This document shows, piece by piece, positions 2,716 to 59,820 of a DNA stretch of 64,000 nucleotides. Positions within the stretch are counted from its first letter, which is position 1; each line of letters opens with the position of its first letter. The stretch comes from Gemmatimonadales bacterium (GTDB lineage Bacteria; Gemmatimonadota; Gemmatimonadetes; Gemmatimonadales; GWC2-71-9): the NCBI GenBank assembly GCA_049680185.1, contig JBAUHI010000032.1, positions 3,767-67,766 of the forward strand, written 5' to 3'. The notes under the pieces were generated by a model. It saw only the letters and a program-made list of their open reading frames with translations, made no database searches and had not been told where the DNA came from. The position numbers and the translations under genes are program-made.

Positions 2716-3087
2716 TCAGCTGACCAAGTGCTGCAGGCCCCGGTTGTACGTGAAGAGGGTGAACAGCGCGACGATGACCACGACGGCGATGATGATCGGG
2801 AAGACGAAGGCGCCGCTGAAGATCCGGCTGTCATTCTTCAGGTGCATGTAGAACGCGGCCACCAAGGCGAACTTGGCCGCGGAGAGCAGCACCAGCAGGA
2901 GGATGAAGTTCGGGTCGACGAACGAAGCGATGGCACCCTTGATGCTGCCGTCGTGGATCGAGTAGGTCACGACCTCGAGCGCGGTCAGCGCGAACAGGAT
3001 CAGCGCGATGGCGGTGTAGGTCTTCCACCCGGAGTGGCCGCGGGCCTCGGCGGGGGCGGGGGCGGCGGCGGCAGCGTGCGCATTCAT
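2716..3087 (-). CDS. ctaF: cytochrome c oxidase subunit IV (bacterial CtaF-like)
   Basis: ATG 3087 (MNAHAAAA), 14 nt after the ctaE stop. Small multi-helix membrane protein with AAFYMHLKND. Last gene of the cta operon. Confidence 0.75.
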   Translation of the reverse strand: MNAHAAAAAPAPAEARGHSGWKTYTAIALILFALTALEVVTYSIHDGSIKGAIASFVDPNFILLLVLLSAAKFALVAAFYMHLKNDSRIFSGAFVFPIIIAVVVIVALFTLFTYNRGLQHLVS

Positions 3088-3101
3088 GGCGGTCGGACCC
3101 C

Positions 3102-3692
3102 TCACTTCATCAGGTAGACGACAGGGAAGATCACGATCCACACCACGTCGACGAAATGCCAGTACAGTGCCGCGATCTCCAGGTTCAGCGCCTTCTCAGG
3201 CGTCAGCTTGCCGCGGAGGCCCTGGATGAAGAGCGTGATGAGCCAGAGCACGCCCACCGACACGTGGGTGCCGTGGAACCCGGTCAGGGTGAAGAAGCTC
3301 GCCCCGAACAGGTTGGTATGGATGGTCAGGCCCTTCTGGACGAAATGCGTGAACTCGTAGACCTGCATCCCGACGAAGAAGAGCCCGCACAGGATGGTGA
3401 GCCCCAGGAAGCTCAGGAACTGCCCCCGCTTGCCGTGCTGCAGGCCGTTCAAGGCCAGCACCACGAAGAATGAGCTGAACAGGAGGAGAGCGGTGCCGAT
3501 GGTCACCAGCCCGATCTCGAGGATGTCGCTCGGGAACGGGCCGACCTTGCTCTGCCCCCGATAGATCACGTAGGTCGAGATCAGGGAGGCAAAGAAGAGG
3601 CACTCCGACCCGATGAAGATCCAGATCGCCAGCTTTCGGCTGTCGAGGCCGGTCGTGGTCGGCGGGTGCAATGCGTGCGCGTCGTGGGTCAC
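3102..3692 (-). CDS. ctaE: cytochrome c oxidase subunit III
   Basis: GTG 3692 lies 16 nt after the ctaD stop and is preceded by GGAG. Contains TLTGFHGTHVSVGVLW and ALYWHFVDVVW motifs. Confidence 0.85.
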   Translation of the reverse strand: MTHDAHALHPPTTTGLDSRKLAIWIFIGSECLFFASLISTYVIYRGQSKVGPFPSDILEIGLVTIGTALLLFSSFFVVLALNGLQHGKRGQFLSFLGLTILCGLFFVGMQVYEFTHFVQKGLTIHTNLFGASFFTLTGFHGTHVSVGVLWLITLFIQGLRGKLTPEKALNLEIAALYWHFVDVVWIVIFPVVYLMK

Positions 3693-3708
3693 ATCGATCT
3701 CCGAGGGG

Positions 3709-5544
3709 TCATTCGACCGGTTCGAACGCCCAGTTGAACACAGACACGAGGAGCAACGCCGCCCCCGCCAGGATGATCGGAAGCTTGACCCCGACCAGGA
3801 AGCCAACGAGGAAGATCAGGATCCCCCACGCCGCGAAGAACGGCCAGTAGCTCGACGGGGGCATGTGGATCCCCGCTCCCGATCCGCGGACCGGCTCGGG
3901 CAACGTGCCGCCGGCCTTCCGCTTGGCCGCCCAGAGCGGATCGCGTCCGTCGACCGTCGGGATCTGCTCGAAGTTGTGCGGCGGCGGCGGCGAGGGAATG
4001 GACCACTCGAGGGTGGCGCCGCCCCACGGATCGGCCGGGACCGGTGTCGTCGGGCGGGTGCGCCAGGTCTTGATGATGTTGATCAGGAAGACCAGGAATG
4101 AGGTGCCCAGGATGAGCGACCCGGCGGTGGCGACCGCATTCCAGAACGAGAACCCGAGTCCGGTCGGGTAAGTGTAGACCCTGCGTGGCATCCCGTTGAG
4201 TCCCAAGAAATGCATCGGGAAGAACGTCAGGTTGAACCCGATCAGCATGAGCCAGAAATGCACCTTGCCCAAGCGCTCATCCAGCATCCGGCCGAACATC
4301 TTGGGGAACCAGTAATAGGCGCCCGCCGTCAGCGCGAAGATCGACCCGCCGAAGAGCACATAGTGGAAGTGCGCCACGACGAAGTAGGTGTCGGTCTGCT
4401 GCAGGTCGGCCGGGGGCACCGCGTGCATCACGCCGGAGAGGCCGCCGATGATGAACATCGCGATGAACCCGAGCGCGAACATCATCGGCACCCGGAAGCG
4501 GAGACTGCCGCCCCAGATGGTGGCGATCCAGTTGAAGATCTTGACGCCGGTCGGGATCGCGATCAACATCGTGGTGAGCGAGAACACCGTGTCCGCGATC
4601 GGTCCCATCCCGACGGCGAACATGTGGTGGCTCCACACCCCGAACCCGAGGAACGCGATGAAGATGCCGGAGAACACCATCGCGGTGTAGCCGAAGATCG
4701 GCTTGCGCGAGAAGACCGGGAGCACTTCCGATACGATCCCGAAGGCCGGCAGGATCAGGATGTACACCTCGGGATGTCCGAAGATCCAGAACAGGTGCTG
4801 CCAGAGGACCGGATCGCCACCACCGGTCGGCACGTAGAAGCTGGTACCGAAGAATCGGTCCATCATCAGCAGGATCAGCGCGACCGTGATGACCGGGAAC
4901 GCCAGCAGCAGCAGCACCTGCGTGATGAGGCTCATCCACGTGAAGATCGGCATCCGGAGGAGCTTCATCCCGGGCGCCCGCATGTTGATGATCGTCGTGG
5001 CGAAATTGACCGCCGCCGCCAGCGAGGCGATGCCCAGCATCTGGAGGCCGAGGAGCCAGAAGTCGATGTTGATGGCCGGCGAATACTGGATGCTCGTCAG
5101 GTTGGCATATCCGAACCAGCCGGCGTTCGGCGCCGCGTGGAACAGGAAGCTCGAGTTGATGAACAGCCCGCCCAGCAGGAACACCCAGTAGCTGAAGGCG
5201 TTGAGCCGGGGGAACGCCACGTCCCGGGCACCGATCTGCAGCGGGATCATGAAATTGAAGAACATCGCCGACAACGGCATCACCGCGAGGAAGATCATCG
5301 TGGTGCCGTGCATCGTGAAGACCTGGTTGTACACCTCGGGCGACAGGAACGTGTTGTCCGGCCGCCCCAGCTGCCAGCGGAGCAGCAGCGCTTCGAGCCC
5401 ACCGATCAGGAAGAAGAGGAACGCGGTCGCACCGTAGAGGATGCCGATGCGCTTGTGATCGACGGTGGTGATCCAGCTCCACACGCCCGTCGCCTCGTGG
5501 GAGGCGCCGGCGGCGTGGTCGCGGGGAAGGGCGGCAGTGGCCAT
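3709..5544 (-). CDS. ctaD: cytochrome c oxidase subunit I
   Basis: 611 aa. Heme-copper oxidase signature WIFGHPEVYILILPAFGIVSEV, HHMFAVGM and FVVAHFHYVLFGG. Two extra C-terminal helices. Confidence 0.95.
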   Translation of the reverse strand: MATAALPRDHAAGASHEATGVWSWITTVDHKRIGILYGATAFLFFLIGGLEALLLRWQLGRPDNTFLSPEVYNQVFTMHGTTMIFLAVMPLSAMFFNFMIPLQIGARDVAFPRLNAFSYWVFLLGGLFINSSFLFHAAPNAGWFGYANLTSIQYSPAINIDFWLLGLQMLGIASLAAAVNFATTIINMRAPGMKLLRMPIFTWMSLITQVLLLLAFPVITVALILLMMDRFFGTSFYVPTGGGDPVLWQHLFWIFGHPEVYILILPAFGIVSEVLPVFSRKPIFGYTAMVFSGIFIAFLGFGVWSHHMFAVGMGPIADTVFSLTTMLIAIPTGVKIFNWIATIWGGSLRFRVPMMFALGFIAMFIIGGLSGVMHAVPPADLQQTDTYFVVAHFHYVLFGGSIFALTAGAYYWFPKMFGRMLDERLGKVHFWLMLIGFNLTFFPMHFLGLNGMPRRVYTYPTGLGFSFWNAVATAGSLILGTSFLVFLINIIKTWRTRPTTPVPADPWGGATLEWSIPSPPPPHNFEQIPTVDGRDPLWAAKRKAGGTLPEPVRGSGAGIHMPPSSYWPFFAAWGILIFLVGFLVGVKLPIILAGAALLLVSVFNWAFEPVE

Positions 5545-5578
5545 CGTATCTGTCAGGCTCTCGTGAGGGTCGACGCGC

Positions 5579-6625
5579 TCAACGATGCGCGCGGACGTAG
5601 TGGACGAGTGCAGCGATCTCGGGTTCGGTCAGCGGGCGAGGGAGCTTCATCAACGCGCCCGGCTTTGCCGCCTGCGGGTCCCGGAGCCAGATCGACATGG
5701 TCGAATCGCTCTCGGGGAACAATCCCGCCACGATGGTCCCACGACTGGCCACGTGGGACAGGTTGGGGCCCATCATCGACATGATGTGCTCGGTAGGTTG
5801 CCCGGCCATCGCGTGGCAGCCGACGCATCCCGCCGTGATGAAGAGTGCCTTCCCGACCTTGAAGAGCGAATCGGTGGAATCGCCGGCGAAGGGCATCAAC
5901 TGCGCCTGTTCCCACTGGGCGAACGTCGCCGAGTCCTGGACCACGATCCGGAAGCCCATCCGCCCGTGTTCCTCGCCGCAGAACTCGGCGCATTGCGATG
6001 GGTAGGTGCCGACGGTGTCGGCCTTGAACCAGAAGTGGTTGGTGTGCCCCGGGATCATGTCGCGCTTCCCGGCGAACTGCGGAACCCAGAAGCTGTGGAT
6101 CACGTCCGCCGAGGTGAGGCGGAGGTCCACCGTGCGGCCGAGCGGCACGTGCATCTCGTCGGCCGTGACCACCGTGTCCTTCCCCATCGGGTAGCGGAAC
6201 TCGAACCACCATTGGTGGCCGATCACGTCGACCTGCACCGAATTGCCGCCGGGCAGTTCCGACGTCTTGAAGATCGTCTTGACGGTGGGGACCGCGATGA
6301 TGGCCAGGATGATGGCCGGGATGATGGTCCAGGTGATCTCGAGGACGAGATTGCCGTGGGTCTGCTTCGGCTCGGGATCGCCGGGACGCTCCCGGAACTT
6401 GATCATCGCAAAGACCAGGGCGCCCTCGACGAGGATGAACACGCCGGTCGCCCACCACACCGTGGTGAACAGCAGGTGATCCACCATCCGGGCAAAGTCG
6501 CCCTTGGGGAGCAATGTGGTCTGGGGATAGTGTTCGGCGCAGCCGGCCACGACCAGCGCCAACAGCGGCGCCAGCCAGCGTGACCAACGGCCGGAACGGA
6601 ACGACGGTTCGGCGGAACGAGGCAT
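5579..6625 (-). CDS. ctaC: cytochrome c oxidase subunit II with fused C-terminal cytochrome c (caa3 type)
   Basis: ATG 6625 (MPRSAEP). Lipobox-like LVVAGC. CuA site HSFWVP..CAEFCGEEHGRM. Heme c site CVGCHAM. Confidence 0.9.
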   Translation of the reverse strand: MPRSAEPSFRSGRWSRWLAPLLALVVAGCAEHYPQTTLLPKGDFARMVDHLLFTTVWWATGVFILVEGALVFAMIKFRERPGDPEPKQTHGNLVLEITWTIIPAIILAIIAVPTVKTIFKTSELPGGNSVQVDVIGHQWWFEFRYPMGKDTVVTADEMHVPLGRTVDLRLTSADVIHSFWVPQFAGKRDMIPGHTNHFWFKADTVGTYPSQCAEFCGEEHGRMGFRIVVQDSATFAQWEQAQLMPFAGDSTDSLFKVGKALFITAGCVGCHAMAGQPTEHIMSMMGPNLSHVASRGTIVAGLFPESDSTMSIWLRDPQAAKPGALMKLPRPLTEPEIAALVHYVRAHR

Positions 6626-6925
6626 CAAGCGATCATCCTTGGGCGGTACCGGGCCAGGGGCCGGTGGAAAACACGCAGGCAGAATAGCCGCCGCAATGCA
6701 CCACGTCAAGGAATTCATCATCAGAATGAAGACGGCCTGAAACGAAGATGAAGACGACGGACGAGGCGGCCGGAAGGCGCCCGGAGCCCGAGGAAGATCG
6801 GGACATCCAGACCTGGATCCGAATCGATCGATCGGAAACTTTCAAGGCCTGCTGTTCGTTCCCGACTCCAACGTTGTTCGTATCGATCGGGCCACCCGCC
6901 ACCACCTACCCGGAACGAGCCTCCC

Positions 6926-7417
6926 ATGACCGCCGCTGAACGCCAGGCACTCATCCGCCAATACGCCGCCGGTCCCGCCAAGATCAAGGCGGCCCTCGCG
7001 CAGGTCCCCGCCGACGCACTGCAGTGGCGCCCGGGCCCGGGGAAATGGTCGGTCCATGAGATCGTGATCCACTGCGCCGACAGCGAGGTCCAGGCCCACA
7101 CGAGGATCCGGGCACTCCTGGCCGATGCCGATCCGGTCATCCACGCCTATGACCAGGACCGCTGGGCCGTCGCACTCGACTACCACCGACGCCCGCTCGC
7201 ACCGGCGCTCGCCACCATCGAGGCGGTCCGCGCCAACACCGTCGCGCTCATCGAATCGCTCACTGACGGGCAGTGGGCCCGTACCGGGCGCCATACGGAG
7301 TCAGGCCCCTTCTCGGCAGAAAAGTGGCTCACGATCTACGCCAAGCACCTCGATCAGGAGCGGCACGAAGGACAGATCCTGCGGAACCTGGAAGCGTGGC
7401 GCGGGCGGGGGAAGTAG
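6926..7417 (+). CDS. DinB-family (DinB_2) metal-dependent protein
   Basis: 163 aa. Four-helix DinB pattern with His residues in WSVHEIVIHCADSE and AKHLDQERHEGQI. Confidence 0.7.
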   Translation: MTAAERQALIRQYAAGPAKIKAALAQVPADALQWRPGPGKWSVHEIVIHCADSEVQAHTRIRALLADADPVIHAYDQDRWAVALDYHRRPLAPALATIEAVRANTVALIESLTDGQWARTGRHTESGPFSAEKWLTIYAKHLDQERHEGQILRNLEAWRGRGK

Positions 7418-16557: not shown

Positions 16558-16585
16558 GTGAACATTTCCAGACCGGGAGACGTCC
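16558..16585 (+). promoter_or_regulatory. candidate ECF-type promoter
   Basis: GTGAAC, a 17-nt spacer, then CGTCC, about 40 nt upstream of the ECF sigma start. Resembles the GAAC..CGTC pattern of autoregulated ECF promoters. Confidence 0.4.
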
Positions 16586-16624
16586 CTATGACAACTTCCG
16601 CCCGGTGCCCAGGATGGAGCGTTG

Positions 16625-17194
16625 ATGCCTGAAAGAGGTCGGTCGGGGGAGGAAACGCTTCGGCTCCATCTGGTGGTGCTCCGGTGCCAGGCGGGGGACG
16701 AGCGAGCGTTCGCCCAGCTCTTCGAGTGGTTCGGCGAGCGCACCCTCCGACACCTGCGGGCGTTGGTCGATGAGGAGGCGGAGGATGCACAGCAGGAGCT
16801 CTGGCTGGCGGTATATCGCGGCCTCGGTGGATTGAGCGATCCGGCAGCCTTCCGGACCTGGCTCTTCCAGACCACCCGGCACCGGGCCTTTGACCTGCTG
16901 CGGCGCCGGAAGCGGGAACAGCGACTGCTCGAGCTGACCGCGGCGGAGCAGACGATCGACGGTGAGGCCATCGACGACGGCTCCACCCTCGGCCCCGATG
17001 ACCTGGAGCTGGCGGAGACGATGGCGGCGCTCTCGCCGATCCACCGGGAGGTCCTGCTTTTGCGATATCAGAACGACTTGAGCTACGCGGAGATCGCGCT
17101 GGTGGCCGGCTGTTCGATCGGGACCGTCAAATCCCGGCTGCACCAGGCCAAGGCGCGATTGCGGGAGACCATCAACCGAAGGGGAACATCATGA
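16625..17194 (+). CDS. ECF (sigma-70 family) RNA polymerase sigma factor
   Basis: Region 2 EDAQQELWLAVYRGL..FRTWLFQTTRHRAFDLLRR. Region 4 LSYAEIALVAGCSIGTVKSRLHQAK. A TTG at 16622 is an alternative start. Confidence 0.85.
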   Translation: MPERGRSGEETLRLHLVVLRCQAGDERAFAQLFEWFGERTLRHLRALVDEEAEDAQQELWLAVYRGLGGLSDPAAFRTWLFQTTRHRAFDLLRRRKREQRLLELTAAEQTIDGEAIDDGSTLGPDDLELAETMAALSPIHREVLLLRYQNDLSYAEIALVAGCSIGTVKSRLHQAKARLRETINRRGTS

Positions 17195-17571
17195 AGACCG
17201 AGAGCGCGAGCGCGGGACCGACCTGGGAAGTGATCGATGCCGAGAAGCGCCGCGACCGTTTCCTCCGGCGGGTGAACTTCGCAGCGTGGGGCGCCGTATG
17301 CGCCGTCGTGCTTGTGTACGCGGTGGCGATCGGCACGATCATCGTCTGGGCGGTCAAGAGAAGCGCGGTGGGGGCCGGGTCGCTGCTGGATGCGTTGCCC
17401 ATGCTCCTTCCCTTGGTCACGATCATCGGTGTGGTCTGCCTCCTCATTGCTGTCCTGACGACGATCGCCATCTTCCTCCGCTTCCGGACCGCGAGCCTGG
17501 CGGAGATCCAGCTCCGACTCGCGGCGCTCGAGCGGATGCTCGCGTCACCACCCGACCAAACCCGAAATTGA
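17191..17571 (+). CDS. membrane protein, possible anti-sigma factor
   Basis: ATGA overlap with the sigma gene. 126 aa with two or three hydrophobic helices. No zf-HC2 motif, so the anti-sigma role is inferred from position only. Confidence 0.55.
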   Translation: MKTESASAGPTWEVIDAEKRRDRFLRRVNFAAWGAVCAVVLVYAVAIGTIIVWAVKRSAVGAGSLLDALPMLLPLVTIIGVVCLLIAVLTTIAIFLRFRTASLAEIQLRLAALERMLASPPDQTRN

Positions 17572-21539: not shown

Positions 21540-22040
21540 ATGAACATCACCACCCTGCTGCTCCCGGAGTTCGACCGCGAAATGGCCTCCACCCGGAAAG
21601 TCCTCGGGCGCGTCCCCGAGGCGAAGGCCGCCTGGAAGCCGCACCCCAAGTCCTTTTCCTTGGGCGACCTCGCGGTCCACGTCGCAACGCTCCCGTACTG
21701 GGGCACCGTGACCTTCCGCGACACCGAATTCGACTATACCGAAAAGGTCGCCAAGGACCTGGCTCGGAAGTTCGAGGGGACCGCGGCACTGCTCACAATG
21801 TTCGACAACAACGCGGCCTCTGCCCGAGCCGAGCTGGCCAAGATGACCGATGCCGGCTGGTCGGTCCCGTGGACCTTCAAGTACGAGGGCCAGGTCGTGT
21901 TCACCAAGTCGAAGTATGAGACCTACCGCACCGACACCCTCGACCACCTGATCCATCATCGGGCACAGTTGACGGTGTATCTGCGGCTCAACGACGTGCC
22001 GCTGCCGAACCTCTACGGACCGACGGCGGACGAGAAGTAA
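21540..22040 (+). CDS. DinB-superfamily protein
   Basis: 166 aa. Contains LGDLAVHVATLPYW and LDHLIHHRAQLTVYLR. Confidence 0.75.
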   Translation: MNITTLLLPEFDREMASTRKVLGRVPEAKAAWKPHPKSFSLGDLAVHVATLPYWGTVTFRDTEFDYTEKVAKDLARKFEGTAALLTMFDNNAASARAELAKMTDAGWSVPWTFKYEGQVVFTKSKYETYRTDTLDHLIHHRAQLTVYLRLNDVPLPNLYGPTADEK

Positions 22041-22155
22041 GGTGGGCGAAGAGCGGGCGAGGAGCGGGCGAGGAGCGGACGGGAAGCGGGCAACAAGCGG
22101 GCGTAGTGGGGGCGGTGATCATGCACACCTACTCTGCCCGCTTCTTGCCCGCGCC
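22041..22155. repeat. GAAGAGCGGGCG-type oligomer tract with short complementary arm
   Basis: 22041-22105 is GGTGGGCGAAGAGCGGGCGAGGAGCGGGCGAGGAGCGGACGGGAAGCGGGCAACAAGCGGGCG. 22133-22155 is CTGCCCGCTTCTTGCCCGCGCC. It fills the gap between convergent genes. Confidence 0.8.
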
Positions 22156-22878
22156 CTACAGCATGATCTTGGCGAGCTCCGGGCCCTTCATGTCGGGGCC
22201 GCCATTGTCCATCGGCTCAACGCTCAACGCCGCACCCATCACCTTGGCACTTCCCGGCGGCATCCCGGTGGTGAACGTCGCCACCTTGCCGGGAACCACC
22301 TCGAGCACCACGCCCTGCCGCATCCCGCCGTCGGTGATGAACCAGAACTGATACTTCTGCCCCACCCTGGCCGGCGGCAGGCCATGCACCACCACCGACC
22401 AGCGGTGGGTGTGCTCATCGGCAAGGATCATCATCCCGCCCTGCTCCCCGTTCATCGCAAAGCTGGCATTGAGCACCCGACTCGCGTGGCGCGCCACGGA
22501 CATCGTGTCCTGGAGTGCCGCCAAGGCGGTCCGCTGCGATGCGACATCCACCTCGAGCGCCCCGATCCGCCGCTCCAGCTGGAAGACGAGCCCCACCGCC
22601 ACCAGGAGTGACGCCGCCAGTACCAGCGGCAGGATCCACCCACGCGTGCGCCGACGTCCCAGTGCCCGATCCAGCGCTTCGCGACGGAACCCGGGACGCG
22701 GCGCCACCGGTGCCACCCCCATCGGTAGCCACGCCAGTTCCGCCTCCAGCTCGGCCACCGCCGCGCGACAATCAGGACACCGCTTGAGGTGGTCGCGGAA
22801 GCTCCGCGCCTCCTCCGCGTCGAGCGCCTGCGCCACCCAGGCCGAGCGGTGTTCGAAGAACCAATCGTGTGCGGTCAT
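22156..22878 (-). CDS. anti-sigma factor (zf-HC2 N-terminus, RskA-like C-terminus)
   Basis: ATG 22878 (MTAHDWFFEH) overlaps the sigma stop as ATGA. HLKRCPDCRAAVAELE is the H-x3-C-x2-C motif. One TM helix. C-terminal FWFITDGG..ALSVEP. Confidence 0.8.
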   Translation of the reverse strand: MTAHDWFFEHRSAWVAQALDAEEARSFRDHLKRCPDCRAAVAELEAELAWLPMGVAPVAPRPGFRREALDRALGRRRTRGWILPLVLAASLLVAVGLVFQLERRIGALEVDVASQRTALAALQDTMSVARHASRVLNASFAMNGEQGGMMILADEHTHRWSVVVHGLPPARVGQKYQFWFITDGGMRQGVVLEVVPGKVATFTTGMPPGSAKVMGAALSVEPMDNGGPDMKGPELAKIML

Positions 22879-23498
22879 TGCACCCACTCCTTGAGCGGCG
22901 CCAGTGATCGACGCAGCTTGTCGAACGCGAGTCGCAGTCGGGTCTTGACCGTCCCCATCGGGATCGAGAGTTCCTGCGCGATCTCCGAATGGGTCAGGCC
23001 GTGGAAATACGCCAGGCGCACGGCAGCGCGCTGATCCTCCGGCAGCTGGAGCAATGCCGCGTGGATCCGTTCGTGCACGTGCCAACCGGGCGTCGCCGCT
23101 TCATTGACCTCCGGCGCCGCGGTCGCGAGTTCGCCCAGCACGCCGAGCGAGTGGGCCTGGTCGGCAGTGCGGAGGCGGCGGCCTCGGCGGCGGAGGCGGT
23201 CGATGGCCCGGTTCCGCGCCACCCGGATGAGCCATGGCATCAATCCACGGGGATCAGGCTCCACTTCCCCGATGCGGTCCCACACCGTGCCGAACACCTC
23301 AAAGACCACCTCTTCGGACTCTTCCCGATCGCGCAGGATCGATTGCGTCACACCGAGGAGCCAGGGAGAGGCCAGGTCGATCAACTCCGAAAGCGCCCCC
23401 TCATCCCGTGCGAGGAGGCGCTCCCGGAGGGAGGCCGGTGCGGTGGTCGAGAGCACCGCCAGCACCGGCGTGGAGCGAATATCCCGTTCGGGCGTCAC
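22875..23498 (-). CDS. ECF RNA polymerase sigma factor
   Basis: GTG 23498 overlaps the upstream stop as GTGA. Contains WLIRVARNRAIDRLRRR and LTHSEIAQELSIPMGTVKTRLRLA. Confidence 0.85.
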   Translation of the reverse strand: MTPERDIRSTPVLAVLSTTAPASLRERLLARDEGALSELIDLASPWLLGVTQSILRDREESEEVVFEVFGTVWDRIGEVEPDPRGLMPWLIRVARNRAIDRLRRRGRRLRTADQAHSLGVLGELATAAPEVNEAATPGWHVHERIHAALLQLPEDQRAAVRLAYFHGLTHSEIAQELSIPMGTVKTRLRLAFDKLRRSLAPLKEWVQ

Positions 23499-24001
23499 GG
23501 CTTCTTCATCATCCCCGTGTCGTGCTTCATCATGCCGTCGCCGTGCTTCATCATCCCCATGCCGTGAAGCGGCGCCTTGCCGACCACCGCGTGATGTGCT
23601 TTGGACCAGACGACGACGGTGTTGTACTCCCACACCTTGGCGCTCGCGGGTACGGTAAAGGTGCCGCCGCCCTGGCCGCCGGGGAGCTCGCCGAGCTCGA
23701 GCGCCGTGTCGTCGACCTTGCCGTCCTTGGTGAGGTAGACGAAGCCGTCGGGGGAGCCGGTAGACGTGAAGTCCTTGCTGATCTCGAGGAGGTGTTTGCC
23801 GTCCTTGACCGACATCGTGAAGGTCCCGGCGGCCGTGTGGGGTGCCACCCCTTCGAACGCGACCGCCGGCATCGCGTGATCCTTCATCATCATCTTGCTG
23901 TGGTCCATCTTGCCCGAATCCATCCCCATCCCGCCGCCAGCCTGGGCTGCGAGCGGTGCTGCGAGGAGGAGGAGAGCGAGGGGGGTCAGACGCATTCGCA
24001 T
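23495..24001 (-). CDS. secreted DM13-domain protein with Met/His-rich termini
   Basis: Signal MRMRLTPLALLLLAAPLAAQA. GMGMDSGKMDHSKMMMKDHAM near the N-terminus. DM13-like core GTFTMSVKDGKHLLEISKDFTSTGSPDGFVYL. C-terminal HGMGMMKHGDGMMKHDTGMMKKP. Confidence 0.75.
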   Translation of the reverse strand: MRMRLTPLALLLLAAPLAAQAGGGMGMDSGKMDHSKMMMKDHAMPAVAFEGVAPHTAAGTFTMSVKDGKHLLEISKDFTSTGSPDGFVYLTKDGKVDDTALELGELPGGQGGGTFTVPASAKVWEYNTVVVWSKAHHAVVGKAPLHGMGMMKHGDGMMKHDTGMMKKP

Positions 24002-24082
24002 ATGAGGCTCCTGTAGGGTGTGGGGGAACTTTCAGAGAATGCCGCTCGCCCGGGTAACGCTGGCCGGGCGAGAGCGGTTCTG

Positions 24083-24490
24083 TCATCGCTTCGAGGTCGG
24101 GGACCGGGACCTGGTCCGGCGAAATGGCGCCCTCGCGATCGCTTCGCCGTGAGCGTTCGACCAGATGATCATCGTGTCATACATCCTGAGGTCCGTCCCA
24201 TCGGGGATCGGGAAGGTCCCTCCCCCGATGTCCTTGATCTCTGCCACTTGCAGCGCCGTCGAGTCGACGACTCCACGCACGGCCAGATAGATGAAGGCAT
24301 CGGGGGCACCCCTGGTCTCGAAGTCATCCGAGAGTCTGATCCAGTGCCTCGCGCCATGCGTCACCATCTGGTAGCTCCCCGAGACACTGTTGGGGGCATA
24401 CGCAGTAAAGAAGACCGGGCGGCTCATCCGCTGTGCCGCGAGCGGGGTCGCAACGAGGAGCAGGACGAGGGGAACGATGGGCAGGCGCAT
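24083..24490 (-). CDS. secreted DM13-domain protein
   Basis: Signal MRLPIVPLVLLLVATPLAAQ. Core SGSYQMVTHGARHWIRLSDDFETRGAPDAFIYL, paralogous to the downstream gene. Confidence 0.7.
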   Translation of the reverse strand: MRLPIVPLVLLLVATPLAAQRMSRPVFFTAYAPNSVSGSYQMVTHGARHWIRLSDDFETRGAPDAFIYLAVRGVVDSTALQVAEIKDIGGGTFPIPDGTDLRMYDTMIIWSNAHGEAIARAPFRRTRSRSPTSKR

Positions 24491-24624
24491 TCAGTGGTCC
24501 TCGATCCAGGGGTAGTTCTAAGATCGTCCGGCGGTGAAATAGTGCCACCCCCCCTTCGTTCTCCTGTCACATACGGCGCCTCACCCCTTGGCCCCCTCGT
24601 CACAGCGCTCTTCCTCACCCCCGA

Positions 24625-24650
24625 CCCCTCTCCACGTTCGTGGAGAGGGG
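24625..24650. repeat. perfect 11-bp stem hairpin CCCCTCTCCAC-gttc-GTGGAGAGGGG
   Basis: Read directly. It lies in the divergent region between the DM13 operon and the 24775 gene. Confidence 0.9.
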
Positions 24651-24774
24651 GGCAGATCTCGACCGGTGGACTCCCCCTCCCACAGGGAACGGGGCGGGCG
24701 CCGAAGGGTAGGCACACCGATGGCGCAGAGCGACCGCTCCTCATACAATCCCTTATCCCTCACCGTGACCGGCC

Positions 24775-25194
24775 ATGGCAGCCCTGACCAGCATCACCCA
24801 GCTCCGCATCGTGCATTGGGCGCTCATCGCGTCGTCGGTGCTCATCACCGCCGTCGTCTGGGGTGCTCGCTCGATACCCGGCGCCGCACCGCCGGCGAAC
24901 CTGGCCACGGCGAGCATCCTCTACGTCGGCATCGCCGTAGGCGTGCTGGCCCTGACGATCGCGATGGCGGCGTGGCGCACGATCGTGCCCTACCAGCCCC
25001 CCAGTGAGCTGCGGGAGTGGCTCCAGAACGCCGGCCCCCGGATGATCATCACGTGGGGCCTCTGCGAAGGCGCCGCCGTGGTGGGCGGCATCACCTACTT
25101 CACGACAGGCAACGCGTGGGCATGTGGCGTGCTATCCGTTGCCGCCATCCTCGCAGTCATTTACCACTCACCGAGGAAGCTTGCCACATCGTGA
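24775..25194 (+). CDS. hypothetical membrane protein
   Basis: 139 aa with four hydrophobic helices. No family recognised. Confidence 0.55.
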   Translation: MAALTSITQLRIVHWALIASSVLITAVVWGARSIPGAAPPANLATASILYVGIAVGVLALTIAMAAWRTIVPYQPPSELREWLQNAGPRMIITWGLCEGAAVVGGITYFTTGNAWACGVLSVAAILAVIYHSPRKLATS

Positions 25195-41493: not shown

Positions 41494-43557
41494 ATGCCCA
41501 ACCGCCTCTCCACCGCCCGCTCAGCGTACCTCACGTCGGCCGCACATCAACCGGTCCACTGGCACCCGTGGGGCCCGGAGGCATTTGCCGCCGCGCGGTC
41601 GACCGGCCGTCCCATCCTGCTCGACATCGGCGCCGTCTGGTGCCACTGGTGCCACGTGATGGACGGCGAGAGCTACGAGGATCCGGCGCTCGCCGGGCTC
41701 CTCAACACCGAATTCGTGTGCATCAAGGTGGACCGTGACGAGCGGCCCGACATCGATGCGCGCTATCAGCGTGCCGTCCAGGCGCTCACCGGGCAGGGCG
41801 GCTGGCCGCTCACCGCGTTCCTCACGGCACAGGGCGAAGTGTTCTACGGCGGCACGTACTTCCCGCCCGAAGGACTCCACGGACGCCCAGGCTTTCGCTC
41901 GGTGCTCACCGAGGTGGCCCGCATCCACCGCGAGGAGCAGGGCCGGGTCGAGGCGCAAGCGCTCGCCATCAAACGGGCGCTGGCGCATGCCGAAGATCCC
42001 GCCGGCCCCATCGACCCGACCAACGGACTCCTCGACACGGCCGAAGCGGAGCTTGCCCGCCATTTTGACGCGCGGCACGGCGGGTTCGGCCGGGCGCCGA
42101 AATTCCCCCACCCCGCGGCCATCTCGTTCCTCATCGATCGCTGGTATGACTCCGGCCGCTCCGACCCCGGCGCGATGGCCCGTGACACCCTGCGCGGAAT
42201 GGCCCGAGGCGGATTTCACGACCAGGTGGGCGGTGGATTCCATCGGTACAGCGTGGACCCGGAATGGATCGTCCCGCATTTCGAAAAGATGGCGTATGAC
42301 AACGCCGAGCTCCTCAAGGCCTATCTCGATGGCCACGCCGCGTTCGACGATCCGTACTTTGGCGACGTTGCGCGGGACACCCTGGCCTGGATCCGGGAGG
42401 TGCTCGCCGATCCTGATGGCGGGTTCGGCACCAGCCAGGACGCCGACGTCGGCCTGGAGGACGACGGCAACTACTTCACCTGGACGATCGACGAAGCGCG
42501 GGCGGCGCTCACCGCCGACGAGTTCGAGGTCGTCGCGGCCCACTATGACATCGGCACCGCTGGCGAGATGCACCACGACCCCGCACGCAACGTGCTGTGG
42601 ATCGCCGAAGACACCCTCGCCATCGCGCATCGGACCGGACGACCGGCACCGGTGGTCGCCGACCTTCTCTCCCGCGGCAGGACAAAGCTCGCCGCGGCAC
42701 GACGCCTCCGACCTGCACCGTTCATCGACCGCACCCGCTACACCGGCTGGAACGCGATGCTCGCGAGTGCACTGCTCAGTGCCGCAGCACATCTCGACGA
42801 TCCTTGGGCCCGCACCCATGCGCTCCGAACGCTGGAACGGATCGGCCAGGAGTCACCCGATCCCGATGCCGTGCTGCACGTCACCGGCGGGATCAGCGGC
42901 CTTCTCGACGACCAGGTGCAGGTGGCGGCAGCCGCACTCGATGCCTACGAGACCACCGGTACTGAGCATTGGCTCGCATGGGCGGAAGCGATCATGGACC
43001 GGGTCTGGCGCGACTACCGCGACGAGGCCGCGGGAGGGCTGTTCGACATCGCGCATGCTCGCGGCGGGGAGGGACTCCTCCCCGAACGCACCAAACCCAT
43101 CCAGGACAGCCCCACCCCATCACCCAACGGGGTCGCCGCACTCACCTATGCCAGGCTCGCGGCCCTGACCGGCAGAGCGCACTGGCAGACGCGCCACCTC
43201 GAGCTCGTCCGGACGTTCGGCGGACAGGCGGCCGGACTCGGACTCTTCGGCGCCACCTTCCTCCGTGCGCTCGAATGGTCGCTCCTCCCGATGACGCACC
43301 TGGTCGTCGTCGGCCCCAAGGGGCACGCCGAGTCCGACCGGATGCATCGGTGGGCGTTGACGACATTCATCCCGCGCAAGGTGGTCCACCGCCTGACGAG
43401 CATCGCCGGCGTGCGCCCACTGCCACCGGCCCTGCAGGCGATGGTCAACGGGACGACCCCCCGTGCGTATGCCTGTCGGGGCGAGACCTGCCAGGCTCCC
43501 GCCGGCGATGATGCCACCTGGGCGGCGACCCTCGCGGCGCTGCGTCCCGTACACTAG
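41494..43557 (+). CDS. thioredoxin-domain protein, YyaL/DUF255 family
   Basis: 687 aa. WCHWCHVM in a thioredoxin-like N-terminus (ILLDIGAVWCHWCHVMDGESYED), followed by an alpha/alpha-toroid-like remainder. Confidence 0.85.
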   Translation: MPNRLSTARSAYLTSAAHQPVHWHPWGPEAFAAARSTGRPILLDIGAVWCHWCHVMDGESYEDPALAGLLNTEFVCIKVDRDERPDIDARYQRAVQALTGQGGWPLTAFLTAQGEVFYGGTYFPPEGLHGRPGFRSVLTEVARIHREEQGRVEAQALAIKRALAHAEDPAGPIDPTNGLLDTAEAELARHFDARHGGFGRAPKFPHPAAISFLIDRWYDSGRSDPGAMARDTLRGMARGGFHDQVGGGFHRYSVDPEWIVPHFEKMAYDNAELLKAYLDGHAAFDDPYFGDVARDTLAWIREVLADPDGGFGTSQDADVGLEDDGNYFTWTIDEARAALTADEFEVVAAHYDIGTAGEMHHDPARNVLWIAEDTLAIAHRTGRPAPVVADLLSRGRTKLAAARRLRPAPFIDRTRYTGWNAMLASALLSAAAHLDDPWARTHALRTLERIGQESPDPDAVLHVTGGISGLLDDQVQVAAAALDAYETTGTEHWLAWAEAIMDRVWRDYRDEAAGGLFDIAHARGGEGLLPERTKPIQDSPTPSPNGVAALTYARLAALTGRAHWQTRHLELVRTFGGQAAGLGLFGATFLRALEWSLLPMTHLVVVGPKGHAESDRMHRWALTTFIPRKVVHRLTSIAGVRPLPPALQAMVNGTTPRAYACRGETCQAPAGDDATWAATLAALRPVH

Positions 43558-51227: not shown

Positions 51228-51610
51228 CCGGTACCGAGGGACCGAGGCGGACCTCGCGCCTGGGCGCGGCACTCCTGCTTGCCGCCGTATTCGTGGCGGG
51301 GGCCATCGCGGGGGGCGCTCTCGAGGCGGCGCACACATTGGGGCCGCGGCATCCACCACGTGGACCGGATGGTTTTGTGCGCCACTTGGCCGATGAGCTG
51401 ACGTTGAGCGCGCCGCAGCAGGACAGCGTGCGGGCCATCCTGCAGCGCCACAAGCCGCAGATGGACTCCGCATGGGCAGAGATGCGCCCGCGGGTTGAAA
51501 CTTTGCGGCAGACCATTCGTTCGGAGATCGCCGCACAGCTCGACAGCACGCAACGGGTGAAGTTCGACGACTTGAACCGCCGGGATGCAGCACGGCGACC
51601 GGGACAATGA
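51224..51610 (+). CDS. periplasmic Spy/CpxP-family (LTxxQ) protein
   Basis: ATGA overlap. Signal-anchor. LTLSAPQQDSVRAILQRH is an LTxxQ motif in a helical repeat. Confidence 0.65.
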   Translation: MTGTEGPRRTSRLGAALLLAAVFVAGAIAGGALEAAHTLGPRHPPRGPDGFVRHLADELTLSAPQQDSVRAILQRHKPQMDSAWAEMRPRVETLRQTIRSEIAAQLDSTQRVKFDDLNRRDAARRPGQ

Positions 51611-52908
51611 CCGACGTGAATCTCAATCGACTCCTCTTCGCTCCGGCGCTCCTGGCCACGCTTGCCGTCCCTGCCGCCGCCCAGCAGCGCAGTGTGACGC
51701 TCTCCGAGGCCATCGCGATGGCGCAGCGGGTGCAGGTGAACCTTCTGGCCGCACAGGGCGCGGTGCGGACCGCCGCCGCCGCCAAGACCGCCGTGGTAGG
51801 CGAGTACCTGCCGAACGTGAACGCCAATGCATCTGGCAGCCATTCGTACTCGGAGTTCCAGACCGCTGCATCCAGCGGTCAGATCCTCAGCGGCACCAAC
51901 ACCACGGTGAGCACGGGACTCTCGGCGAGCATCGATCTCTTCACCGGCTTCCGCCGGGGAGCGGACATGGCGGCTGCGAAGGCGGGGCAACTCTCCGCCG
52001 CGGCCGGGGTGGTCAGCGCCAAGTATGTGGTGGTGGTGAACACCACGGCGGCCTTCATCGCGGCGCTCACCCAACGACAGCTCGTCTCCGTCGACTCCGT
52101 GGCGGTGGTGCTGACGCAGACCGAGCTCAAGGCCGCGACCGACAAGATGCGCGCCGGCGCCGCCACGAAAGGCGACTCGCTCACGGCCATGGTGGCGTTC
52201 GGCAACGCGCAGCTCTCGCTCGTCAACGCCCAGGCTGCCTTGGTGGGCGCCGAGGCGTCGCTCGCCCACATCATCGGACTCGACGGCCAGGCGTCTGCCC
52301 AGGATGACTCCGCCTACTACCTCGTGATCACCAACGTGGACACCGCTGCCATCCGTCGCGATGCCTTGGCGATGGCCCCTGTCCTCCAGGCGGCGGAGGC
52401 CAGCGCCGACGCGGCCCACGCCAACTTGCGAGCCGCGAAATCCGGGTATTGGCCGACTTTGTCGGCATCCGCAAACGCGAGTTGGTCAGGGAGCGAAGGC
52501 CAGAACTACGAGCTCCTTCCCAATCGGTCCGTTGGATTGCAGCTGAGCTGGCCGCTCTTCAACCGGTTCACCCGAGAACGGAATATCATCACCAACGAGG
52601 TGGCGGCCGAGATCGCCGACGCCACCGCGATCGATGCCCGCCGCCAGCTCAACGCCTCGCTGACCCAGGCCATCGCCTCCCTGCAAGCGGCCGGGATCAG
52701 CATCAGGATCGGCCAGATCAGCATTAGTTCGGCCGATGAGGCACTCAGGGTGGTACAAGAGCGCTACCGGGCCGGCGCCGCAACCATCGTGGATGTGATG
52801 ACCGCCCAAAGTTCGCTCAACTCCGCACAAGTCACCGTGCTTCAGGCCCGCTTCAGCTATCTCAACGCCAAAGCCGCCCTCGAGGCGCTGATCGGACGGT
52901 CGCTGTGA
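51607..52908 (+). CDS. TolC-family outer-membrane efflux protein
   Basis: 433 aa. Signal sequence. Duplicated coiled-coil/beta pattern. [11 protein letters not shown]-type N-terminus. ATGA overlap. Confidence 0.85.
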
Positions 52909-53660
52909 GCGTTGATATCGACACCACCGCCGAACGGATGGCCCGACTCCCGGCCGATGTACCACGCGACGCGGTCATCGTGACCCGGAACCTCCAGCGC
53001 GAATACGTGATGGGCACCGAGGTCGTCCGGGCGCTCCGTGGCATCGACATGACGATCCGGAAGAACGAGTTCGTGGCCATCATGGGTCCGTCCGGGTCCG
53101 GCAAGTCGACGCTGATGAACATGATCGGCTGCCTGGACACGCCCTCCGCCGGAGAATATTGGCTCAACGGGCACCGCGTCTCCGAACTGGGGGATGACGC
53201 CCTGGCACAGATCCGGAACAAGGAGATCGGGTTCGTCTTCCAGACCTTCAACCTGCTCCCGCGCGCCACGGCACTCCAGAACGTGGAACTGCCGCTCGTC
53301 TACGCCGGGATGGGTGCCAAGGACCGGAAGGCCCAGGCCAGCGAGGCATTGCGGCGGGTACGCCTGGAGGATCGGATGGGGCACCGACCCAACGAACTGT
53401 CCGGCGGCCAGCGCCAGCGCGTTGCCATCGCGCGCGCGCTGGTCAACGTGCCGTCGATCCTCCTGGCCGATGAACCGACCGGCAACCTCGATTCACAGAC
53501 GGGCGTCGAGATCATGGCGCTCTTCAAGGACCTTCACAGCCAGGGCCAGACCATCGTCCTGGTGACCCACGAGCACGATATCGCGGAACAGGCGCTCCGT
53601 CAGATCCACATCCTGGACGGGCGTGTCAACCGCGACTTTGCCACCGAGAGGCCTTCCTGA
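52905..53660 (+). CDS. MacB/LolD-type ABC ATP-binding protein
   Basis: GTGA overlap. Contains [27 protein letters not shown] and [11 protein letters not shown]. Confidence 0.9.
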
Positions 53661-55258
53661 TGAAGTACACCCGTGTTCTCCTCGTAGCGGCGCTTGCCGC
53701 CTCCGCCGGCTGCAAGGCCAAGCAGGAGGTCCTGGTCTACCAGGCCATTCCCGTGAGCCGGCGCGACATCGTCGTCTCCGCCCAGGCCGCCGGGAGCATC
53801 CAGCCCGACACCACGGTCGACGTCAAGTCGCTCGCCTCGGGCGAAGTGACCAGCATCAAGGTGCAGACCGGCGAAGTGCTCCAGGCCGGCACGTTGATGG
53901 TCGAGATCGACCGCCGGCAGGCCAAGAACGCCGTCGACCAGTCCGAGGCCCAGTACGAGCAGGCGAAGGCCCAGCTCACGGTGGCCGAGGCGGCCAAGCG
54001 TCGCGCCGACACGCTCTTTGCCCAGCAGGCCATGACCGACGCCGACCACGACCAGGCCATCGTCAACTACGCGACCGCCCGGGCCAACCTCGTCACGGCC
54101 CGGGTCAACAACGAGAACAACATCATCGCGCTCTCGCAGACCGAGGTCCGCGCGCCGATCACCGGGATGGTCATCAGCCAGAACGTCGACCGAGGCAGCA
54201 TGATCGCGGCCACCGGCAAGGACGTCAGCGGCGGCACCACGCTCTTCCAGATGGCCAACATGAGCCTGGTGCAGGTCCACACCCTGGTGGACGAGACCGA
54301 CATCGGCAAGATCCAGGCAGGTCAGAGCACCACGGTGACCGTCGATGCGTACCCCAACCATCCCTTCGATGGCTACGTGATGAAGATCGAGCCAAGGGAC
54401 ACCGTGTCGCAGAACGTCACGATGTTCCCGGTGCTGGTGCGGATCGACAACAAGGACGGGATCCTTCGCCCCGGGATGAACGCCGAGGTGGAGATCCACG
54501 TCGGGCAGCGCCAGAACGTGCTGGCGGCCCCCAACGCCGCACTCCGTACCGACCGTGACTACGTCTCGGCCGCCCAGGTGCTCAACCTTGATCCCGAGAC
54601 CGTGGCGAACCAACTGGCGGCCTCCGACAGCGCCAGTCAGGCGGACGCGTCCCAGAGCTCGTCGCTGGGCGCTGCAGGGACGCCAGGCAAGGATCAGGCG
54701 GCGGGTGCCCACACGATGACCATGTCCAACGGCACCACGATCAAGCTGCCGGACGGTGTCACCGAGCAGCAGGTGAACGCGGCCTTCCAGCACATGCGGC
54801 AGGCCTTCCAGGGCGGCGGCGCGCCCTCCGCTGACGATCGCGCGCTGCTCCAGAAGGTGCGCAGCGCCAACCCGGACATGATGGGGAGCGGGCGTCGTGG
54901 CGGCGGGAATCGCGGCGGTGGCGGAGGCGGCAGCAGCACCGGGGTCGACTCACGGTTGGGCGGGAGCTTCATCGTGTTCGTCAAGCGGGGCGATTCCATC
55001 CGGCCGATGCGGGTCAAGACCGGACTCACCGACCTTGAATACAGCGAAGTGCTCTCGGGGCTCCAGGAAGGGGACTCGGTCCTGGTCTTGCCGAGCGCGA
55101 GCCTCGTGCAGAGCCAGCAGGAGTTCAAGGACCGGATCAACCGCTTTACGGGTGGCGGGAGCGTTCCCGGCATGAAGGCAACGCCGGCCAAGACCGCCAC
55201 GCCGGCCGCGGGTGGCGGCGGTGGCGGCGGTGGCGGGAACCGCGGCGGCGGACGGTAG
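53660..55258 (+). CDS. efflux periplasmic adaptor (MacA/HlyD family) lipoprotein with large low-complexity insertion
   Basis: Lipobox LAASAGC. Lipoyl and hairpin regions (VRAPITGMVISQNV). An insertion of about 135 aa at 54551-54964. Gly/Arg-rich C-terminal tail. Confidence 0.85.
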   Translation: MKYTRVLLVAALAASAGCKAKQEVLVYQAIPVSRRDIVVSAQAAGSIQPDTTVDVKSLASGEVTSIKVQTGEVLQAGTLMVEIDRRQAKNAVDQSEAQYEQAKAQLTVAEAAKRRADTLFAQQAMTDADHDQAIVNYATARANLVTARVNNENNIIALSQTEVRAPITGMVISQNVDRGSMIAATGKDVSGGTTLFQMANMSLVQVHTLVDETDIGKIQAGQSTTVTVDAYPNHPFDGYVMKIEPRDTVSQNVTMFPVLVRIDNKDGILRPGMNAEVEIHVGQRQNVLAAPNAALRTDRDYVSAAQVLNLDPETVANQLAASDSASQADASQSSSLGAAGTPGKDQAAGAHTMTMSNGTTIKLPDGVTEQQVNAAFQHMRQAFQGGGAPSADDRALLQKVRSANPDMMGSGRRGGGNRGGGGGGSSTGVDSRLGGSFIVFVKRGDSIRPMRVKTGLTDLEYSEVLSGLQEGDSVLVLPSASLVQSQQEFKDRINRFTGGGSVPGMKATPAKTATPAAGGGGGGGGGNRGGGR

Positions 55259-55264
55259 CGGCCC

Positions 55265-59040: not shown

Positions 59041-59097
59041 GTGGTGGAACCGTTCGGTGATGGCCAACGTTATCCCGTGTCACCCACCGGAGCCTGA

Positions 59098-59820
59098 ATG
59101 ACCGCCGTACCCCTCTCCGAAGCTGCCGCCGACGCGCCTGCCCCACCGGCACCGCACACTGGCGTACGCCGCCACCACTGGCTGGTGCGCCTGACGCATT
59201 GGATGAACGCGATCGTGCTCACAGGGCTGATCGCGAGCGGCCTCCAGATCTACGGCGCGTTCACCCGCTTCGGGCTCAAGGGCGGGATGCGCATCGGCCC
59301 CAATCCGTTCGAAGGGTATGGCTTCCCGCACTGGATGCGGCTCGGCGGCTGGCTGGCTGGCGGCCTGAATTGGCACTTTGCGCTCGGCTGGTTCTTCCTC
59401 TTCTCCGGCCTCGCCTACGTCCTGTATCTGGGCATCTCCGGCGAATGGCGATCCCTCCTCTTTCGTCCCCGCGACATCGGCCCAGCGGTCCAGATGCAGC
59501 TGTACTATCTGGGCCTCCGGAAAACGCACCCGCCACAGGGAAAGCACAACGCCCTCCAGAAAGGTGCGTACACGTTCATCGTGGCACTCGGCGCCCTGTC
59601 GGCGTTGACCGGCGTCGCGATCTACAAGCCGGTCCAGTTCCATTGGCTCACGGCACTCTTCGGCGGCTACGAGTTCGCCCGGTACTGGCACTTCGTGGCG
59701 GTCTGGGTCTTCGTGGCCTTCACGCTCACCCACGTGGCCCTCGTCTTCGCCGTCGATCCGGCGTCACTGCGTGCCATGCTCACCGGCTGGTACCGCGGGA
59801 GGTTCCCGAATCATGACTGA
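59098..59820 (+). CDS. b-type cytochrome membrane subunit
   Basis: 240 aa. HHWLVRLTHWMNAIVL and other conserved His residues in four to five helices. Overlaps the downstream molybdoenzyme gene by 8 nt. Confidence 0.75.
   Translation: MTAVPLSEAAADAPAPPAPHTGVRRHHWLVRLTHWMNAIVLTGLIASGLQIYGAFTRFGLKGGMRIGPNPFEGYGFPHWMRLGGWLAGGLNWHFALGWFFLFSGLAYVLYLGISGEWRSLLFRPRDIGPAVQMQLYYLGLRKTHPPQGKHNALQKGAYTFIVALGALSALTGVAIYKPVQFHWLTALFGGYEFARYWHFVAVWVFVAFTLTHVALVFAVDPASLRAMLTGWYRGRFPNHD

Follow-up and report, generated by a model that had tools for sequence, protein, structure and literature searches.

Described Systems Closest to the DM13 Locus

MrpX of Azospira and BcrX of Brucella are MXKDX proteins that act as periplasmic hypochlorite sinks under the control of an extracytoplasmic function (ECF) sigma factor, and they are regenerated by MsrP/MsrQ (PMC4436054, PMC8315932). 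Here we describe a locus in a 64 kb stretch of a contig from a Gemmatimonadales soil bacterium (JBAUHI010000032.1; hereafter the window) in which a gene for a DM13-domain protein with methionine-rich tails (DM13-2) overlaps a gene for an ECF sigma factor, which in turn overlaps one for an RskA-type anti-sigma factor, with a second DM13 gene (DM13-1) ahead of them. The original prediction took the four genes for an operon forming a copper- or redox-sensing module with the DM13 proteins as effectors. Most likely, the locus forms a circuit for scavenging oxidants and for repair, and not a system dedicated to copper. Our best reading is that it would be an analogue of the SigF/NrsF-MrpX-MsrPQ hypochlorite defence in which every part is different.

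In SigF/NrsF-MrpX-MsrPQ (YedY1Z1) of Azospira suillum and BcrS/AbcS-BcrXQP of Brucella melitensis, an ECF pair controls a secreted Met-rich protein and a periplasmic molybdenum enzyme of the methionine sulfoxide reductase type with a membrane haem partner. The window encodes a like set of parts, for which we infer the same control. As in these systems, the Met-rich gene adjoins the sigma gene, and relatives of DM13-2 match the same MXKDX model. The window sigma, however, is not ECF16-like, being nearest to SigK and to RpoE(ChrR). Its anti-sigma factor is predicted to be a single-pass protein with ZAS and RskA_C domains, whereas NrsF is a six-helix DUF1109 protein. Where MrpX is a free peptide, the Met-rich repeats of the window are carried as tails by a folded DM13 domain. 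The haem partner is a cytochrome b561 (PF01292) instead of MsrQ, and the reductase operon lies 35 kb away. Finally, the window host belongs to Gemmatimonadota, whereas the known hosts are Proteobacteria.

Two other sigma/anti-sigma pairs are close to that of the window. SigK-RskA of M. tuberculosis (ECF19) is linked to a regulon of secreted proteins and a thiol oxidoreductase (mpt70/83, dipZ). SigK is the best NCBIfam match of the window sigma, the anti-sigma factor is likewise of the RskA_C kind, and the sigma and anti-sigma genes overlap in both; but the window sigma reaches only 114 bits against a cut-off of 226, and its targets would be DM13 and MsrP-like genes instead. In SigK, a conserved Cys pair forms a redox-sensing disulfide (PMC7826278). 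The window sigma has no cysteines and therefore no SigK-type disulfide redox switch. RpoE-ChrR of R. sphaeroides, which mediates an oxidative-stress response to singlet oxygen, provides the closest solved sigma structure (1.3e-21) and shares the ZAS-type anti-sigma domain. ChrR, however, is cytoplasmic and carries a cupin domain, whereas the window anti-sigma is predicted to span the membrane and carries RskA_C.

The effector can be compared with two further groups. Met/His copper proteins (P. syringae CopA and E. coli PcoA with MDHSxM, CusF, SilE/PcoE) share with DM13-2 short MDH, HxxM and MxxH motifs in disordered, secreted Met-rich segments. However, DM13-2 has no cupredoxin, CusF or SilE domain, it has no copper gene context, and its His residues are not conserved in the family. 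In animals, DM13 proteins co-occur with cytochrome b561 modules. They also co-occur with DOMON, and a redox role of the DM13 domain is only predicted in the literature (PMC4140639). The eukaryotic proteins (Knickkopf, Skeletor; DM13-DOMON) are extracellular and have the same Pfam domain, but the bacterial proteins are single-domain, have Met-rich tails and no DOMON, and have no conserved Cys in the window clade. Our literature search found no paper linking bacterial DM13 with sigma factors, copper or MXKDX.

The DM13-2/Sigma/Anti-Sigma Operon and Its Promoter

All four genes are on the minus strand and were found where the original prediction had placed them, with the domains confirmed by Pfam. 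DM13-1 (24083-24490; 135 amino acids) and DM13-2 (23495-24001; 168 amino acids) score 31.0 and 33.7 bits against the DM13 cut-off of 25. The sigma gene (22875-23498; 207 amino acids) has a GTG start and encodes Sigma70_r2, r4_2 and ECF domains, and the anti-sigma gene (22156-22878; 240 amino acids) encodes zf-HC2 and RskA_C. The GTGA overlap of the DM13-2 stop with the sigma start and the ATGA overlap of the sigma stop with the anti-sigma start, both part of the original prediction, can be read in the sequence. A Gemmatimonadales metagenome-assembled genome has an annotated protein identical to a window DM13 protein.

DM13-1 and DM13-2 are separated by a spacer of 81 nucleotides (nt), which contains the ECF-type promoter GAACC-N16-CGTT(A) at 24056-24080 (minus strand), 55 nt ahead of the start codon of DM13-2. 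This motif is a typical ECF promoter, presumed to be autoregulatory for DM13-2, sigma and anti-sigma. Since it lies between the two DM13 genes and is itself conserved, the conserved unit is DM13-2/sigma/anti-sigma, presumably autoregulated, with DM13-1 outside. The four-gene operon of the original prediction is thus reduced to three genes. The effector role proposed for DM13 is supported for the Met-rich DM13-2, the first gene behind the conserved promoter, and we regard an autoregulated operon with DM13-2 as its target as very probable. A long GC-rich hairpin (22081-22156, minus strand) begins at the anti-sigma stop codon, between convergent genes. It folds at -48.6 kcal/mol (z-score -2.9), lacks a U-tract, and probably marks the end of the operon. 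A scan of 21900-24900 gave no sigma-70 promoters or intrinsic terminators. Rfam microRNA models matched this hairpin below their gathering score and were dismissed as chance hairpin matches.

The order Met-rich DM13, sigma, RskA anti-sigma is kept in nine distinct loci from two Gemmatimonadota clades, with DM13 identity down to 34%, so the gene association on which the original prediction was built is conserved. The genes of these loci overlap or lie a few nt apart, and the outer neighbours vary. A scan of the genome collection with a narrower DM13 alignment recovered four Gemmatimonadota loci only. In six aligned loci, AACC and CGTT are invariant at a fixed 16-nt spacing upstream of the Met-rich DM13 gene. 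GAACC-N16-CGTT is also present in L083-L087 and L088, and all related DM13-sigma-anti-sigma loci examined have it ahead of the Met-rich DM13 gene. The distant Met-rich DM13 genes (L079, L080/81, L082) have no adjacent sigma; the sigma linkage is therefore clade-specific and not family-wide. Three of these unlinked distant genes have GATCC-N16-CGTT upstream, which points to the protein being an ECF target and not an obligatory sensor subunit.

Some features of individual loci can be added. In L005 (2700-2880), the leader of about 195 nt that separates the DM13 start codon from the ECF promoter is filled with short tandem repeats (GACGTAA, GACCCGCGAC-like units). In the second DM13-sigma clade (L003, L084-L087), a TonB-dependent receptor gene always precedes the operon, and in L003 and L085-87, a chromate-transporter-family gene and a two-component system follow it.

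A Second Promoter Copy at a Cytochrome b561/Molybdoenzyme Operon

The window has a G+C content of about 67%, and exact GAACC-N16-CGTT occurs in it three times against 0.43 expected. Besides the DM13-2 promoter, the sole intergenic and correctly oriented copy, GAACC-N16-CGTT(ATCC), lies at 59047-59071 on the plus strand, 27 nt upstream of the gene for a prokaryotic-type, membrane di-haem cytochrome b561 (59098-59820, plus strand; Pfam Ni_hydr_CYTB, 98.7 bits). The third match (6586-6610) falls within the coding sequence for cytochrome oxidase subunit II and is taken as chance. The cytochrome gene is followed by that of an MsrP (YedY)-like periplasmic molybdoenzyme with a twin-arginine leader (59771-60523, plus strand; Pfam Oxidored_molyb, 128 bits), the true start of which is likely the ATG at 59813. 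MsrP is its best NCBIfam match (NF003767, 98.9 bits, against 55.7 for SorA). The best solved structure is E. coli YedY (1XDQ, 4.7e-21), with sulfite oxidases at 1e-8 or weaker, and the CVE(A/G)W motif aligns. The cytochrome b561 is presumed to be the quinol-linked electron donor of the adjoining molybdoenzyme.

A metagenome scan with the window cytochrome b returned 69 loci, of which 42 close relatives were used for a motif count. [GA]AACC-N16-CGTT is present within the 165 nt upstream of the orthologous cytochrome b gene in 20 of the 42, where about 0.11 would be expected (background 0.0027 per 165 nt). In other contigs, homologous sigma/RskA genes are physically linked to such operons. L017 has, in one apparent operon, AAACC-N16-CGTT, a thioredoxin-like redoxin, a small open reading frame (136 amino acids, or 114 from an internal Met), sigma, RskA anti-sigma, cytochrome b561 and molybdoenzyme, its sigma and anti-sigma being 60% and 48% identical to those of the window. 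In L071 and L074, from a distant lineage, genes for an ECF sigma and an RskA_C protein are divergent from an operon of a secreted protein with Met-rich MKKPD/MMKKD repeats, cytochrome b561 and molybdoenzyme. A divergent sigma was found in L073 too, where a Met-rich reading frame was not detected; Met-rich reading frames next to cytochrome b operons occur in L071 and L074 only. The gene at the head of the L071 cytochrome b561/molybdoenzyme operon (3364-3843, plus strand) starts about 33 nt downstream of CATCC-N16-CGTA. In its product, a secreted protein of 159 amino acids, the MKKPD/MMKKD repeats are attached to a small globular domain that is unrelated to DM13. The Met-rich repeats therefore ride different carrier domains across lineages. 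In L004, a second copy of the motif lies 77 nt upstream of a thioredoxin-like gene adjoining the DM13 operon.

Because of the identity of the motifs and the linkage in other genomes, we tentatively assign the cytochrome b promoter to the window sigma, and a shared regulon of the DM13-2 operon and the cytochrome b/MsrP-like operon seems to us fairly probable.

Methionine-Rich Tails and the DM13 Family

Both DM13 proteins open with a hydrophobic leader ending in PLAAQ, which we read as a signal peptide, so that both would be secreted. The tails of DM13-2 (residues 21-46 and 145-168) contain 14 Met and 5 His in 50 residues. The Met excess has a binomial P of ~2e-12 against the 2.1% Met of 27 other window proteins, and His makes up 10% of the tail residues. 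Both of the Met/His peptides pointed out in the original prediction are present there, and the units are MMKDH, MMKHG, MMKHD and MMKKP. In an AlphaFold2 model, an all-beta core (41-145) has pLDDT >90, while the tails fall below 50 and are disordered. The Met/His tails are kept, with variable length, in 11 close orthologues having 54-90% identity to DM13-2.

A search with the DM13 profile (PF10517) collected 3449 representative relatives. Of the 150 best matches, those with a single domain and a length of 150-220 amino acids mostly bear Met-rich N- or C-terminal tails, and the multi-domain ones do not. In 31 diverse members, 24% of the tail residues are Met, 13% Asp, 11% Lys and 7% His. Every one of these proteins is enriched in Met there, while the number of His per protein ranges from 0 to 10, with no more than one His in some tails of 49-92 residues. 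TIGR02953, which models pentapeptide MXKDX repeats, is matched by 12 of the 31 (best E 2.5e-10), and JGI labels several relatives with the pentapeptide MXKDX name. The units of the window DM13-2 resemble the MXKDX type although they do not reach the TIGR02953 score.

The DM13 core gives few hints of its own. A nearly invariant cysteine of the family has been proposed as a redox or ligand residue. In that column, both window proteins and all 14 members of the window clade have Ser; of the 31 wider relatives, 17 have Cys there and 11 have Ser. Neither window protein has any Cys elsewhere, and the redox-active DM13 core of the original prediction is not upheld. The invariant residues of the core (D, F, P, D, L, G, F, A) include no invariant haem- or metal-binding motif. 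DM13 is the sole Pfam domain found in DM13-2, and none of the copper-binding family models in Pfam and NCBIfam match it. No cupredoxin or CusF fold was found in DM13-2, the Cu,Zn-SOD-like structural matches having E>=0.1 and TM ~0.4. Foldseek of the DM13 model against the PDB gave no significant match, to a redox protein or any other (best E=0.058), and the DM13 profile matched none of the sequences of solved structures.

Sigma Factor and Anti-Sigma Factor

By its domains, the window sigma is an ECF (group 4) factor, with regions 2 and 4 only and an overlapping anti-sigma gene. It scores 40.9 bits for Sigma70_r2, 61.9 bits for r4_2, and 91.5 bits for TIGR02937 (cut-off 42.9). Its best NCBIfam subfamily, SigK (ECF19, PRK09646), is matched with 114.4 bits, under the cut-off of 226. 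Among solved structures, R. sphaeroides RpoE comes nearest (1.3e-21), ahead of M. tuberculosis SigK (2.4e-18).

The anti-sigma scores 30.9 bits for zf-HC2 (cut-off 22.2) and 49.4 bits for RskA_C (cut-off 29.4). It has the zinc-binding motif H30-x3-C34-x2-C37 (HxxxCxxC, residues 30-37) and one hydrophobic transmembrane stretch at about residues 80-100. It is accordingly classed by sequence as an RskA-type protein, with a predicted N-terminal ZAS domain, a single transmembrane helix and a periplasmic RskA_C domain. That last domain is enriched in Met (10 of 138 residues), with GM and MP invariant and MGA(A) near-invariant. These features hint at Met oxidation as the sensing step, which is speculation.

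At 16622-17571 (plus strand), the window encodes a second ECF sigma (190 amino acids), which is 29% identical to that at 22875-23498, and directly after it a small membrane protein. The latter weakly matches DUF2207_C and may be the anti-sigma of the second sigma. GAACA-N16-CGTC lies upstream at ~16560-16590.

Proposed Mechanism and Alternative Explanations

Of the copper and redox halves of the original prediction, the redox half fits better, in the form of methionine oxidation and repair. We prefer it because the promoter is shared with the cytochrome b561/MsrP-like operon, because sigma/RskA genes are linked to such operons, and because relatives have repeats of the MXKDX type. We give about an even chance to the locus being an autoregulated envelope-stress switch of an ECF sigma and a membrane anti-sigma, with a secreted DM13 beta-sandwich bearing Met-rich tails as its first co-transcribed target. 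The odds that its function is scavenging by methionine oxidation followed by repair we likewise judge to be evenly balanced.

From the inducing signal through to the re-reduction of Met, the scheme is a proposal. A periplasmic oxidant (hypochlorite-like, peroxide, singlet-oxygen-derived or copper-catalysed) would inactivate the ZAS/RskA_C anti-sigma, probably via regulated proteolysis. The freed sigma would transcribe from GAACC-N16-CGTT promoters both the DM13-2/sigma/anti-sigma operon and the distant cytochrome b561/MsrP-like operon and, in relatives, would also drive thioredoxin-like genes. The exposed Met residues of DM13-2 would be oxidised sacrificially, or may bind Cu(I) and then be oxidised. 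The MsrP-like molybdoenzyme would re-reduce them with electrons coming from the quinone pool via the cytochrome b.

The defence by sacrificial methionine and reductase, known from a few Proteobacteria, would seem to have arisen here independently, from a different sigma/anti-sigma family, a different haem partner and a carrier domain that is folded. Bacterial DM13 is a large family without known function, for which the locus supplies a testable context: many DM13 proteins are carriers of MrpX-like Met-rich repeats, here under an ECF sigma that apparently also drives an MsrP-like reductase. To our knowledge, RskA-type ECF groups outside mycobacteria are essentially uncharacterised, and the locus suggests a likely signal class and regulon for one of them.

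Several observations weigh against the scavenging and repair circuit. The motif is seen at about half of the close cytochrome b loci and no more, and most cytochrome b loci have no nearby sigma or Met-rich gene. AAC/CGT promoters are common to many ECF groups, the second ECF sigma of the window having a related motif of its own, and the cytochrome b promoter could be read by another sigma. The molybdoenzyme does not reach the MsrP equivalog cut-off of 207 (NF003767), and its partner is the PF01292 cytochrome b and not MsrQ. The window DM13-2 does not match TIGR02953 at E<=1, most of its tail repeats contain His, and MDHSKM fits the classic copper-binding repeat. Lastly, the conserved folded DM13 core is unexplained by a scavenger.

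A rival explanation is a copper/silver module: by binding Cu(I)/Ag(I), the DM13-2 tails would serve the periplasm as a buffer or chaperone, as do the Met-rich regions of CopA/PcoA, CusF and SilE/PcoE, and the ECF pair would sense periplasmic copper. The MDHSKM, HxxM and MxxH motifs and the tenth of tail residues that are His speak for it, and the Met/His tails are kept among the close orthologues. Moreover, copper stress induces MsrPQ in E. coli, which repairs CusF, the Met residues of which are MsrP substrates (PMC9302797); a copper trigger would thus be compatible with an MsrP-like member of the regulon. However, no copper ATPase, multicopper oxidase, Cus/Cop genes or chaperones, nor any other copper-homeostasis gene, adjoins any DM13-sigma locus or occurs in the window. 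The linked genes are instead thioredoxin-like and MsrP-like, His is dispensable across the family while Met never is, and no copper-binding family model matches DM13-2. The copper-sensing part of the original prediction is not supported by this evidence, and we hold such a module to be unlikely. Copper binding by the tails is nevertheless possible as a real alternative or as a role overlapping with oxidant scavenging.

A further idea is that the DM13 domain may be a dedicated presentation or docking module for a periplasmic cytochrome b/molybdoenzyme methionine-redox cycle, which would hold the Met-rich tails at a membrane-proximal reductase or relay electrons to them. We consider this a doubtful proposition. 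If true, it would be the first function for a DM13 domain and might bear on the animal DM13 proteins. The locus would then also represent a new system of oxidant scavenging under ECF/RskA control, which is widespread in Gemmatimonadota and arose in parallel with SigF/NrsF-MrpX-MsrPQ.

DM13-2 might instead be no effector but a co-sensor, a periplasmic partner of RskA_C (cf. CnrX/CnrY, RseB/RseA) that would govern cleavage of the anti-sigma by becoming oxidised or loaded with metal. ECF units of three genes that include a periplasmic sensor do exist (CnrYXH), and the translational coupling of DM13-2 to sigma by the GTGA overlap and the fixed gene order in nine loci would be accounted for. But homologous sigma/RskA pairs without an adjoining DM13 gene are found in L017 and L071, and Met-rich DM13 genes standing alone behind an ECF-type promoter (L079, L082) show the pattern of a regulon member, so we think a co-sensor very improbable. 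It is scarcely credible that the DM13 core holds a cofactor and shuttles periplasmic electrons with the Met tails as incidental low-complexity sequence: the Pfam name of the family ('Electron transfer DM13'), the redox roles predicted in the literature (PMC4140639) and a putative co-regulation with a cytochrome b are set against Cys-free window proteins with Ser in the usual Cys column, a core without an invariant haem- or metal-binding motif or significant structural match to a redox protein (best PDB Foldseek E=0.058), and Met-rich tails that are a conserved peculiarity of the whole family.

DM13-1 and Neighbouring Features

DM13-1 is 37% identical to its paralogue DM13-2 and lacks the Met-rich tails. 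It is confined to a sublineage, being absent from L003-L007 and present in L088, where its orthologue P0019 is 74% identical and in the same tandem arrangement. Directly upstream of DM13-1 (~24500-24561, minus strand), GAACG-N16-ATTT followed by GGACGATCTT resembles the DM13-2 promoter and 5' leader in a decayed form. Because of this resemblance, we suggest that DM13-1 arose by a tandem duplication that took the promoter along. A GATCTT box is also found after the -10 element in L005-L007.

In the divergent intergenic region upstream of DM13-1 (24625-24650, minus strand) is a perfect 11-bp hairpin, CCCCTCTCCAC-GAAC-GTGGAGAGGGG. L088, L089 and L090 have CCCTCTCCC-TGC-GGGAGAGGG at the corresponding site, the stem being kept with its letters changed. 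A 9-bp GC-rich inverted repeat, CTCGCCCGG / CCGGGCGAG, lies over the spacer and -10 element of the ECF promoter (24041-24075, minus strand). It folds at -28 kcal/mol (z-score -2.3), is weakly conserved in other loci, and could be a terminator hairpin of DM13-1 or an operator.

The window also encodes an aa3-type cytochrome c oxidase operon with subunit II fused to a cytochrome c domain (2716-6721, minus strand), a large DsbH/DUF255 thioredoxin-like protein (41494-43557, plus strand) and a MacAB/TolC-like efflux set (51607-56476, plus strand). The promoter motif is not present upstream of any of these three in the window. A DinB-family gene adjoins the anti-sigma gene both in the window (21540-22040) and in L004. 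Another gene of the DinB_2 family (6926-7417) has a looser form of the motif, GTTCC-N16-CGTA, 44 nt upstream (6858-6882, plus strand).

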